From the NCBI RefSeq assembly GCF_011045215.1, contig NZ_CP049201.1: a stretch of DNA of 64,000 nt; one strand, given 5' to 3'. The notes beneath the pieces were generated by a model. The model did not search any database and had not been told where the DNA came from. It saw nothing but the letters and a program-made list of their open reading frames with translations. Source of the DNA: Escherichia coli (GTDB lineage Bacteria > Pseudomonadota > Gammaproteobacteria > Enterobacterales > Enterobacteriaceae). How positions within the stretch are numbered: position 1 is the first letter of the stretch; each line of letters opens with the position of its first letter. Position numbers and translations under genes: made by a program. This document shows positions 4,652-6,814 of the stretch, one piece after another.

Positions 4652-6814
4652 ATGAAAAAAAATGCCCAGTCCGTGGAAGCCTGGCTGGAGGCGATGATCG
4701 CCGTGGCGCGCTATTACCGCCTTGATTTTTCTCAGGAGAATGTGCGCGCGACCGTCAACTGGGAGCGCGACAGTAAGCGGGAGGAGTTACTCACCGACAT
4801 GGCGCGGCAGTTGGGAATGGGGTTACGGCTGGTGGAGTTTTCCGCCGATTCGCTTAACCCCTGGCGTCTGCCGCTGATCGCGGTGTTTGATAATCAGCAG
4901 ATTGGCGTGATCACCCGTCGCGATAATCACGACAATATCAGCGTTCAGTTCAGCGGTGACGAAGGGCTGGAAACTACACTTAACGTCGCGGATGTCGAGG
5001 ATAAAATCGTCGAACTGGCGCTGCTGCGCCCTCTCAGCGCCATCCCTGACGCGCGGGTGGATGACTATATTCGCCCGTATCAGGCGAACTGGTTCTGGAA
5101 CCTCTCGCTAAAAGACTGGCGGCGCTATGGCGATATTATGCTGGCGTCACTGGTGGCGAACGTGCTGGCGCTGGCAGCGATGATTTTCTCGATGCAGGTT
5201 TACGATCGGGTGGTTCCTGCGCAGTCCTATCCGACGCTATGGGTGCTTTTCGCCGGGGTGATGATGGCGATCCTGTTTGAGTTCTGTATGCGCATGGTGC
5301 GTACGCATCTTTCTGATGTGATCGGCAAGCGGGCGGATCTGCGTATTTCGGATCGCGTTTTTGGTCACGCATTACGGCTGAAAAACAACGTGCGATCGAA
5401 ATCCACCGGATCGTTTATCTCGCAGATCCGCGAACTGGAATCAGTGCGGGAGCTTATTACGTCCACCACCATCGGCGCGGTGGCGGACCTGCCGTTCTTC
5501 CTGCTGTTTGTTTTTATTCTGTGGATGATTGGCGGCTGGCTGGTGCTGGTGGTTTTGCTGGCGCTGCCGTTGCTGGTGATCCCCGGCCTGCTGGTGCAAC
5601 GCCCGCTGGCGCGGCTGGCGAACGAAGGGATGCGCGAGTCGGCGGTGCGTAACGCTACGCTGGTGGAAGCCGTGCAGTCGATTGAAGATATTAAGCTGCT
5701 GCGTGCCGAACAGCGTTTTCAGAATCAGTGGAATCACACCAATGATGTGGCCTCGTCCATCAGCATGAAGCAACGTTTTCTCACCGGGCTGCTGCTCACC
5801 TGGACCCAGGAAGTGCAATCCATCGTCTACGTCGTGGTGCTGCTAGTGGGCTGCTTTATGGTGATGAACGGCGACATGACCACCGGCGCACTGGTCGGGA
5901 CGACGATCCTGGCTTCGCGCACCATCGCGCCGCTGTCGCAGATATCCGGCGTGCTCTCGCGCTGGCAGCAGGCGAAAGTAGCACGTAACGGCCTGGATGA
6001 ACTGATGAAGCGCCCCGTGGATCAGCCGGAACACGGCAAACTGGTGCATAAAGCGGTGCTGCACGGTAATTATCAGTTCAGCAACGCTATCTTTTATTAC
6101 GACGAAGAAGAGAAGATTGCCGATGTAGCGATTGGCAAACTCAACATTCAGGCTGGTGAGAAAATCGCCATTCTCGGGCGCAACGGCGCGGGTAAATCGA
6201 CGCTACTGCAAATGCTCGCCGGAATGCGTATCGCCCAGCAGGGGCAGGTGTTGCTGGATAACATCAGTATCGGGCAGCTTGATCCGGCAGATCTGCGGCG
6301 CGACATGGGGCTACTCAGCCAGACCGGGCGACTGTTCTTTGGTTCGCTGCGGGAAAACCTCACCATGGGGATGCCGGAAGCCAGCGATGAAGATATCGAA
6401 CGCGCGTTAACCCTCAGCGGAGCGCTGCCCTTTGTGCAGAAGCAGAAAAACGGCCTCAACTACATGATTCAGGAAGGGGGATTTGGTCTCTCTGGCGGCC
6501 AGCGGCAAACGCTGCTGCTGGCGCGGCTTCTCATCTCTCAGCCGAATATCGTCCTGCTCGACGAACCCAGCGCCTCGCTGGACGAAATGGCAGAAGCGTA
6601 TTTAATCGAACAACTGAAACAGTGGATTGGGCATCGCACGCTAGTCATCGCCACTCACCGCACGGCGATGCTGCAACTGGTGGACCGCATTATCGTGATG
6701 GATCAGGGGCGGATTGTGATGGATGGCGCGAAAGAGGCTATTTTGCGTGAACAGAGCGAACCCACGGCGCGACGGGTGGTGTTGCAGGAGAAGAATAAGG
6801 GGTCTGCTGCATGA
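4652..6814 (+). CDS. Type I secretion system ABC transporter (HlyB/LapB family) with N-terminal C39-like domain
   Basis: 720 aa; Walker A GRNGAGKST, ABC signature LSGGQRQ, Walker B IVLLDEPSASLD; six-helix TMD; first ~130 aa contain no cysteine (C39-like, non-catalytic). ATG 3 nt after adhesin stop. Confidence 0.9.
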   Translation: MKKNAQSVEAWLEAMIAVARYYRLDFSQENVRATVNWERDSKREELLTDMARQLGMGLRLVEFSADSLNPWRLPLIAVFDNQQIGVITRRDNHDNISVQFSGDEGLETTLNVADVEDKIVELALLRPLSAIPDARVDDYIRPYQANWFWNLSLKDWRRYGDIMLASLVANVLALAAMIFSMQVYDRVVPAQSYPTLWVLFAGVMMAILFEFCMRMVRTHLSDVIGKRADLRISDRVFGHALRLKNNVRSKSTGSFISQIRELESVRELITSTTIGAVADLPFFLLFVFILWMIGGWLVLVVLLALPLLVIPGLLVQRPLARLANEGMRESAVRNATLVEAVQSIEDIKLLRAEQRFQNQWNHTNDVASSISMKQRFLTGLLLTWTQEVQSIVYVVVLLVGCFMVMNGDMTTGALVGTTILASRTIAPLSQISGVLSRWQQAKVARNGLDELMKRPVDQPEHGKLVHKAVLHGNYQFSNAIFYYDEEEKIADVAIGKLNIQAGEKIAILGRNGAGKSTLLQMLAGMRIAQQGQVLLDNISIGQLDPADLRRDMGLLSQTGRLFFGSLRENLTMGMPEASDEDIERALTLSGALPFVQKQKNGLNYMIQEGGFGLSGGQRQTLLLARLLISQPNIVLLDEPSASLDEMAEAYLIEQLKQWIGHRTLVIATHRTAMLQLVDRIIVMDQGRIVMDGAKEAILREQSEPTARRVVLQEKNKGSAA

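Follow-up and report, generated by a model that had tools for sequence, protein, structure and literature searches.

A 64,000-nucleotide stretch of Escherichia coli DNA (contig NZ_CP049201.1; hereafter, the window) opens with the 3′ part of siiEA, a giant adhesin gene that the start of the window truncates. The visible part is followed by an open reading frame (ORF) for an ATP-binding cassette (ABC) exporter, by a gene for a HlyD-family membrane-fusion protein (MFP), and by cueR (Table 1). The subject of this report is the exporter's N-terminal domain, which is predicted to have the fold of the C39 peptidases of bacteriocin exporters but not their catalytic residues. We computed directly its fold, the loss of its catalytic residues, its family membership, its operon context, and the purifying selection acting on it. 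Beyond the N-terminal domain, the exporter has a conventional layout, and the motifs of its nucleotide-binding domain are intact: Walker A (residue 509), the LSGGQ signature (613), Walker B with its glutamate (633), and the H-loop (667).

Table 1. Features of the siiEA secretion locus, by position in the window
Feature	Position	Strand	Basis or remark
3′ part of siiEA, giant adhesin gene (1,548 aa visible)	1..4648	+	Cut by window start
FG-GAP/VCBS-type repeats, adhesin	3017-3235	+	PF13517, 71.2 bits; between Ig-like repeats and RTX block
RTX nonapeptides, adhesin	4172-4276	+	PF00353, 24.0 bits (gathering score, 23)
Type I secretion system (T1SS) C-terminal target domain, adhesin	4328-4636	+	TIGR03661, 37.5 bits (cut-off, 17.6)
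ABC exporter ORF (720 aa)	4652..6814	+	ORF list
N-terminal C39-fold domain of exporter (aa 1-127)	4652..5032	+	Predicted catalytically dead, LssB/LapB type
Ala10 codon, at C39 catalytic Cys position (PCAT1 C21, HlyB Tyr9)	4679..4681	+	phmmer, hmmsearch, and hhalign agree
Trp11 codon, near-invariant family residue beside former Cys position	4682-4684	+	
Val78 codon, at HlyB W77 position	4883-4885	+	Profile hmmsearch, hhalign
Ile84 codon, at catalytic His position (HlyB H83)	4901..4903	+	Profile hmmsearch, hhalign
Conserved linker (aa 128-148, ...PDARVDDYIRP...), N-terminal domain to first membrane helix	5033..5095	+	35 homologs
ABC transmembrane domain (aa 162-423)	5135..5920	+	PF00664, 110.5 bits
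Nucleotide-binding domain	6140..6814	+	PF00005, residues 497-640, 96.7 bits
HlyD-family MFP	6811..7986	+	TIGR01843, 328.7 bits (cut-off, 208.65)
cueR	7983..8390		Gene downstream of MFP

Predicted C39 fold and loss of the catalytic residues

The exporter contains only two cysteines (C212 and C401), and none falls within residues 1 to 133 (4652..5050). An in-frame stop lies one codon (3 nt) 5′ of the start codon, which rules out an N-terminal extension in which a cysteine could be hidden, and the RefSeq ortholog is annotated with the identical start. The bare absence of cysteine from these residues is nevertheless within chance. The probability of finding none in 133 residues is 0.57 at the cysteine frequency of the exporter itself and 0.15 to 0.26 at frequencies of 1 to 1.4%. 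The visible 1,548-residue fragment of the adjoining adhesin also has no cysteine, and related N-terminal domains often carry one to three cysteines at noncatalytic positions (35-homolog alignment, described below). What counts is the residue at the catalytic position.

To place that position, the fold had to be established. The Pfam model of C39 peptidases (PF03412) aligned with residues 12 to 83 of the exporter but did not reach its gathering score of 22, either with the whole protein (15.5 bits) or with the N-terminal domain alone (19.1 bits), and a single-sequence phmmer search of the Protein Data Bank (PDB) gave only borderline matches, with the peptidase domain of PCAT1 at E = 0.04. A family profile was therefore needed. 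An exhaustive representative search detected homologs of the domain in 155 proteins at an E value of ≤1e-3; a word-index search with a 160-residue query gave mainly fragments and close E. coli copies, and the diversity of the family was taken from the exhaustive search. The resulting alignment and profile comprise 35 homologs that span the domain and are 21 to 55% identical to the query. Against the PDB, the profile matched the "N-terminal peptidase C39 like domain" of an ABC protein for toxin secretion from Vibrio parahaemolyticus (3B79; E = 6e-12), HlyB's C39-like domain (CLD; 3ZUA, E = 4.9e-7), and the C39 domain of PCAT1 (7N87; E = 6.4e-6), followed by the active C39 domains of the ComA entries (E = 1e-3) and of LahT (6MPZ; E = 2e-3). 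An AlphaFold2 model of the domain had a pLDDT (predicted local distance difference test) of 88 and a pTM (predicted template modeling score) of 0.80, and its top 23 Foldseek matches (E ≤ 5e-4) were C39 domains or CLDs without exception. From the profile and the model, residues 1 to 127 are firmly predicted to form a papain-like C39 fold at the N terminus of the exporter.

Residue equivalences were mapped by three methods: phmmer to PCAT1, profile hmmsearch to PCAT1 and HlyB, and hhalign to HlyB. The catalytic cysteine of C39 peptidases, located where helix 1 begins, is at index 24 of the 7N87 and 6V9Z chains, which we take to be C21 in native PCAT1 numbering. At this position, the query has alanine (Ala10), and the column is unconstrained among the 35 homologs (proline in nine, alanine in seven, glycine in four, others in the remainder, and cysteine once). 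The catalytic histidine is replaced by Ile84, in a column that is valine, isoleucine, or leucine in 32/35 homologs and histidine in none; the corresponding HlyB residue, His83, has been equated with the catalytic His96 of ComA (review). Since the residues at the nucleophile and general-base positions are both aliphatic, the domain should be unable to act as a cysteine peptidase, and we predict from these alignments that it is nonproteolytic, with both catalytic residues lost.

These results bear on an earlier note on this DNA, which had reported that the first ~130 residues contain no cysteine, had aligned them by position with C39 peptidases, and had concluded that the domain is nonproteolytic. 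The first cysteine of the exporter is indeed C212. The positional alignment is real by family profile and fold comparison, although weak by Pfam, and the domain searches that the note proposed as a check, like the Foldseek comparison, gave no other fold that competes with C39. The nonproteolytic assignment is borne out by a C39 fold with Ala10 and Ile84 at the catalytic positions.

One distant member of the family (P0087, positions 4495-6606 of comparison locus L006) has a cysteine exactly at the former catalytic position (..NKIC-W..) and valine at the histidine position. This cysteine is probably a chance reversion. The P0087 locus adjoins IS21-family (IstB) and Mu-type transposase genes.

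Assignment to the LssB/LapB class

Curated family models separated the exporter from HlyB. The whole protein scored 836 bits (residues 10 to 703) on TIGR03375 (type I secretion system permease/ATPase, LssB), above the curated cut-off of 693.1, whereas on TIGR01846 (type_I_sec_HlyB) it scored 387.5 bits, below the cut-off of 725.55. The N-terminal domain alone gave 73.5 bits on the LssB model versus 15.6 on the HlyB model, in a run repeated with residues 1 to 130. As a control, the HlyB CLD scored 115.4 bits with the HlyB model and 34.1 bits with that of LssB. The 3B79 domain scored 76.2 bits on the LssB model and 14.5 on the HlyB model; a solved structure of the LssB subtype therefore already exists. 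The 35-homolog profile itself was about equidistant from the HlyB CLD (32.7 bits) and the active C39 domain of PCAT1 (29.0 bits).

The residues at the HlyB signature positions agree with this separation. By published accounts, HlyB Trp77 stacks on His83 and is a conserved residue of HlyB-type CLDs (review; Smith et al., bioRxiv 10.1101/198937), whereas the query has Val78 at the position of Trp77, and tryptophan occurs there in 0/35 homologs. The N-terminal domain of LapB has neither the C39 cysteine nor the CLD tryptophan and forms a distinct subgroup, and LapB-like transporters, among them LssB, cluster as a phylogenetic group of their own that is associated with giant adhesins (Smith et al., bioRxiv 10.1101/198937). 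For LssB, in turn, a "LapB-type N-terminal CLD" has been described (PMC6959600). The query domain likewise has neither residue, as judged from the columns of the family alignment and from hhalign, and the gene for its giant adhesin substrate, which carries a T1SS domain at the C terminus, lies alongside the ABC and MFP genes. On these model scores and alignments, we assign the N-terminal domain to the LssB/LapB type and not to the HlyB type. The comparison "as in HlyB" made in the earlier note does not hold, given the replacement of W77 by Val78 and of H83 by Ile84 and the LssB-type domain score. The cysteine-less, histidine-less state is the ordinary, published state of LssB/LapB adhesin exporters and was already known.

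The likeness to LapB (Pseudomonas fluorescens) and LssB (Legionella pneumophila) extends from the TIGR03375 match, which includes the N-terminal domain and was made through an NCBIfam model named after LssB rather than through the LapB or LssB sequences themselves, to the substrate and the operon. Each system exports a giant adhesin built of repeats, with a prefix or retention-type domain at its N terminus and a T1SS domain at its C terminus, and an MFP and a TolC-like protein are encoded in the operon (for siiEA, a TolC-family gene in the orthologous locus). The N-terminal module of SiiEA differs in being of the BapA_N type. The structure 3B79 is only 19 to 20% identical to the query domain and has leucine where the query family has Trp11; the entry comes from structural genomics, and we found no functional study of it in the literature. 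With HlyB (CLD structure 3ZUA; HlyB/D complex 7SGR), the exporter shares the fold of the domain, its position in the transporter, the lack of a catalytic cysteine, and an RTX-repeat substrate that bears a C-terminal export signal. The two differ in the His83-Trp77 stack of HlyB, at whose positions the query has Ile84 and Val78, and in their cargo: HlyA is a fully released toxin, whereas SiiEA is a giant surface adhesin. From the active C39 proteins PCAT1, ComA, and LahT, the exporter is set apart by the missing catalytic pair, by its subthreshold Pfam C39 score, and by a substrate of >6,900 residues without a double-glycine leader; the peptides handled by C39 domains are smaller than about 10 kDa (review).

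The family has conserved features of its own. Across the 35 homologs, these include Trp11 (32/35), Ala19, Ser27, Gly55-Leu56, a WRLP motif with an invariant Pro74, and FSGD103. The linker that joins the domain to the first membrane helix follows the consensus L-R-P127...P-D133-A-R135-V-D137-x-Y-I-x-P142, which is specific to the LssB-type family, with D133 and R135 each in 34/35 homologs, D137 in 31/35, and, just upstream, P127 in 33/35. Its pLDDT is low in the isolated-domain model, and the PDARVD motif is not present in the aligned part of HlyB (to about residue 129).

Relative to a RefSeq allele, the codons of the N-terminal domain show 14 synonymous differences and one nonsynonymous difference (A77V). 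Distant homologs in metagenomic contigs retain an N-terminal domain that is 30 to 41% identical to the query and again scores higher on the LssB model. At these loci, the ABC gene stands beside a giant ORF that the end of the contig truncates, with an MFP gene directly downstream, and an outer-membrane efflux protein gene is beside the ABC gene in 3/4 places. One such giant ORF, upstream of its ABC gene, matches a C-terminal model of large adhesins (BapA/Bap/LapF). The domain is under purifying selection; the synonymous excess and the retention of the domain in distant loci together indicate that selection maintains it as a conserved component of this transporter class and that it is not debris.

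The SiiEA adhesin and its secretion signal

The visible part of the adhesin contains Ig-like Big_13/Ca-tandemer repeats (PF19077) upstream of the FG-GAP/VCBS-type repeats, which lie toward the C terminus of the protein and from their sequence are a candidate ligand-binding module. The RefSeq name of the ortholog is "BapA-related adhesin SiiEA," and we found only a gene-content table and one sentence on SiiEA in the literature. As the window does not include the 5′ end of siiEA, the N terminus was read from an orthologous locus outside it (L002, 13436-14635), where a BapA_N prefix domain is encoded (PF22783, 70.7 bits). This domain is followed by the sequence D-T97-A-A-G100-G and by a Gly/Ala-rich hydrophobic stretch at about residues 130 to 153. 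We take T97-A-A-G100 to match the di-alanine cleavage motif at which LapG cuts LapA-like adhesins. A double-glycine leader was not found at this orthologous N terminus, in which the first glycine pair is residues 100 and 101.

C39 peptidases act on double-glycine leaders at the N terminus and not on C-terminal signals. The step that the earlier note had taken from a cysteine-free domain to an uncleaved C-terminal signal does not follow, because the leaders that such peptidases remove are at the other end of the substrate. An uncleaved C-terminal signal on SiiEA is nonetheless plausible by analogy, given its RTX nonapeptides, its TIGR03661 domain, and the BapA_N prefix of its ortholog. The presence of a CLD in a transporter correlates with large RTX substrates that bear uncleaved C-terminal signals (review).

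Proposed role and alternative explanations

Taken together, these results make it very probable that the exporter carries a dead C39-fold N-terminal domain typical of the LssB/LapB class and works with an adaptor and a TolC-like channel to export SiiEA. The substrates of this class are giant adhesins of repetitive sequence, with RTX repeats and a C-terminal secretion domain that is not cleaved off. The exporter would combine with the HlyD-type adaptor encoded downstream and with a TolC-like channel, whose gene lies upstream of siiEA in orthologous loci, to transport the >6,900-residue adhesin. SiiEA would be threaded C terminus first through this ABC-MFP-TolC-like conduit, and on the HlyB paradigm its C-terminal signal would not be removed. 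By analogy with the HlyB CLD, the N-terminal domain could tether or chaperone the still unfolded C-terminal portion of SiiEA at the transporter entrance, on the cytoplasmic side, before threading begins; such a substrate-docking role is plausible.

Several points weigh against this interpretation. The first 10 residues of the model, with a mean pLDDT of 72, are less confident than the rest, and the residue equivalences come from sequence and profile alignments rather than from superposed coordinates. The third residue of the triad is ambiguous: the HlyB aspartate aligns with Ser101, and aspartate or glutamate is found in 28/35 homologs two residues later, at position 103. The docking role is an extrapolation from HlyB; the key residues there, W77 and H83, are not conserved in the query, and we found no binding or secretion study of any LssB-type N-terminal domain in the literature. 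Finally, the loci from which Smith et al. defined LapB-like transporters have lapG and lapD, whereas the annotation of the flanks of the orthologous siiEA locus, 13 kb upstream and 20 kb downstream, lists neither lapG (BTLCP protease) nor lapD (cyclic di-GMP receptor).

Since the domain lacks the signature residues of HlyB and conserves others instead, its binding surface and its ligand may differ from those of HlyB. In a stronger form of this idea, which we regard as rather unlikely, the LssB/LapB N-terminal domain would be a separately specialized module whose own invariants (W11, WRLP74, FSGD103, and the PDARVDxYI linker) recognize a non-RTX ligand. Candidate ligands would be the TIGR03661 C-terminal domain, the adaptor protein, and the N-terminal plug of the adhesin at the end of translocation. 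With a LapG-type TAAG site in its ortholog and no linked lapG or lapD, SiiEA would be either permanently anchored or released by another protease. An alternative, the position of the earlier note, is that this is an HlyB-type CLD proper, which binds the unfolded RTX region through the surface used in HlyB. We find that very unlikely: neither Trp nor His occupies its column anywhere in the family, the whole protein and the domain both score poorly on TIGR01846, the family profile is about as far from the HlyB CLD as from an active peptidase, and the literature separates the two groups (bioRxiv 10.1101/198937).

Could the domain have no function of its own, or else a catalytic one? That it is an evolutionary vestige would fit the loss of the catalytic residues, the failure of Pfam to recognize the domain any longer, and the lack of a recorded C39 match for the distant homologs. 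The codon differences from the RefSeq allele (14 synonymous versus one nonsynonymous), the persistence of family-specific invariants across sequences that are only 21 to 55% identical, and the retention of the domain in every full-length homolog examined make a vestige highly improbable. An active peptidase with a noncanonical nucleophile, processing the adhesin for example at the TAAG near its N terminus, would fit that motif in the orthologous adhesin, the conserved acidic residue at position 103 (28/35), and the near-invariant Ser27 and Trp11. We find it scarcely credible, given that the Cys and His of the triad are both replaced by aliphatic residues, that the cysteine column is unconstrained, and that the query has no conserved histidine near the former active site (position 21 is tyrosine, although histidine in 22/35 relatives). 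Moreover, in Lap systems LapG cleaves the TAAG site in the periplasm (bioRxiv 10.1101/198937), but the query domain is cytoplasmic.

The placement of the SiiEA exporter in the LapB/LssB class determines which model system and which solved structure (3B79) should be used for it. The substrate-binding residues of HlyB are not transferable to this exporter, and the conserved residues of the LssB-type N-terminal domain are ready targets for mutagenesis. Beyond correct annotation, the significance is slight: the feature is already published as normal for a curated family, and the locus is an annotated accessory locus of E. coli.

Genomic context and neighboring genes

The region is E. coli DNA, with the cysS gene in the window 99.2% identical to E. 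coli chromosomes. Positions 4000 to 8400 are 97.5% identical to RefSeq loci annotated as siiEA, T1SS permease/ATPase, HlyD family adaptor, and cueR. This segment was covered to at least 80% in 957 of 5,426 complete E. coli genomes, while all other genomes matched only part of the query; with coverage at this level in only those genomes, the siiEA/T1SS island is an accessory locus. Annotation of siiEA as an E. coli adhesin locus goes back to strain UMN026. One RefSeq orthologous locus has the order ybaT, TolC-family protein gene, siiEA (20.8 kb), ABC, MFP, and cueR. The island is inserted between ybaT and cueR.

The ABC, MFP, and cueR genes are tightly packed: ATGA overlaps join the ABC stop to the MFP start (6811-6814) and the MFP stop to the cueR start (7983-7986). 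A scan for promoters and terminators between the adhesin, ABC, MFP, and cueR genes gave nothing convincing. Because of these overlaps, the copper regulator gene cueR could be transcribed or translated in continuity with the secretion genes in island-bearing strains.

Farther along the window, mnmH (19613..20707) is the next gene after ybbP (16964..19378). A RefSeq comparator (L001, 35781-40455) has an RHS element and a ybbD-family gene between these two genes, an element that is absent from the window (19378-19613). Just beyond cueR, on the minus strand, positions 9101-10117 encode a small adhesin of the trimeric-autotransporter type, a protein of 338 residues whose membrane anchor is YadA-like (PF03895, 45 bits). 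It is flanked by two ORFs without a Pfam match, at 8594-9016 (minus strand) and 10484-10846 (plus strand). The YadA-like gene is a second accessory adhesin gene adjoining the T1SS island.

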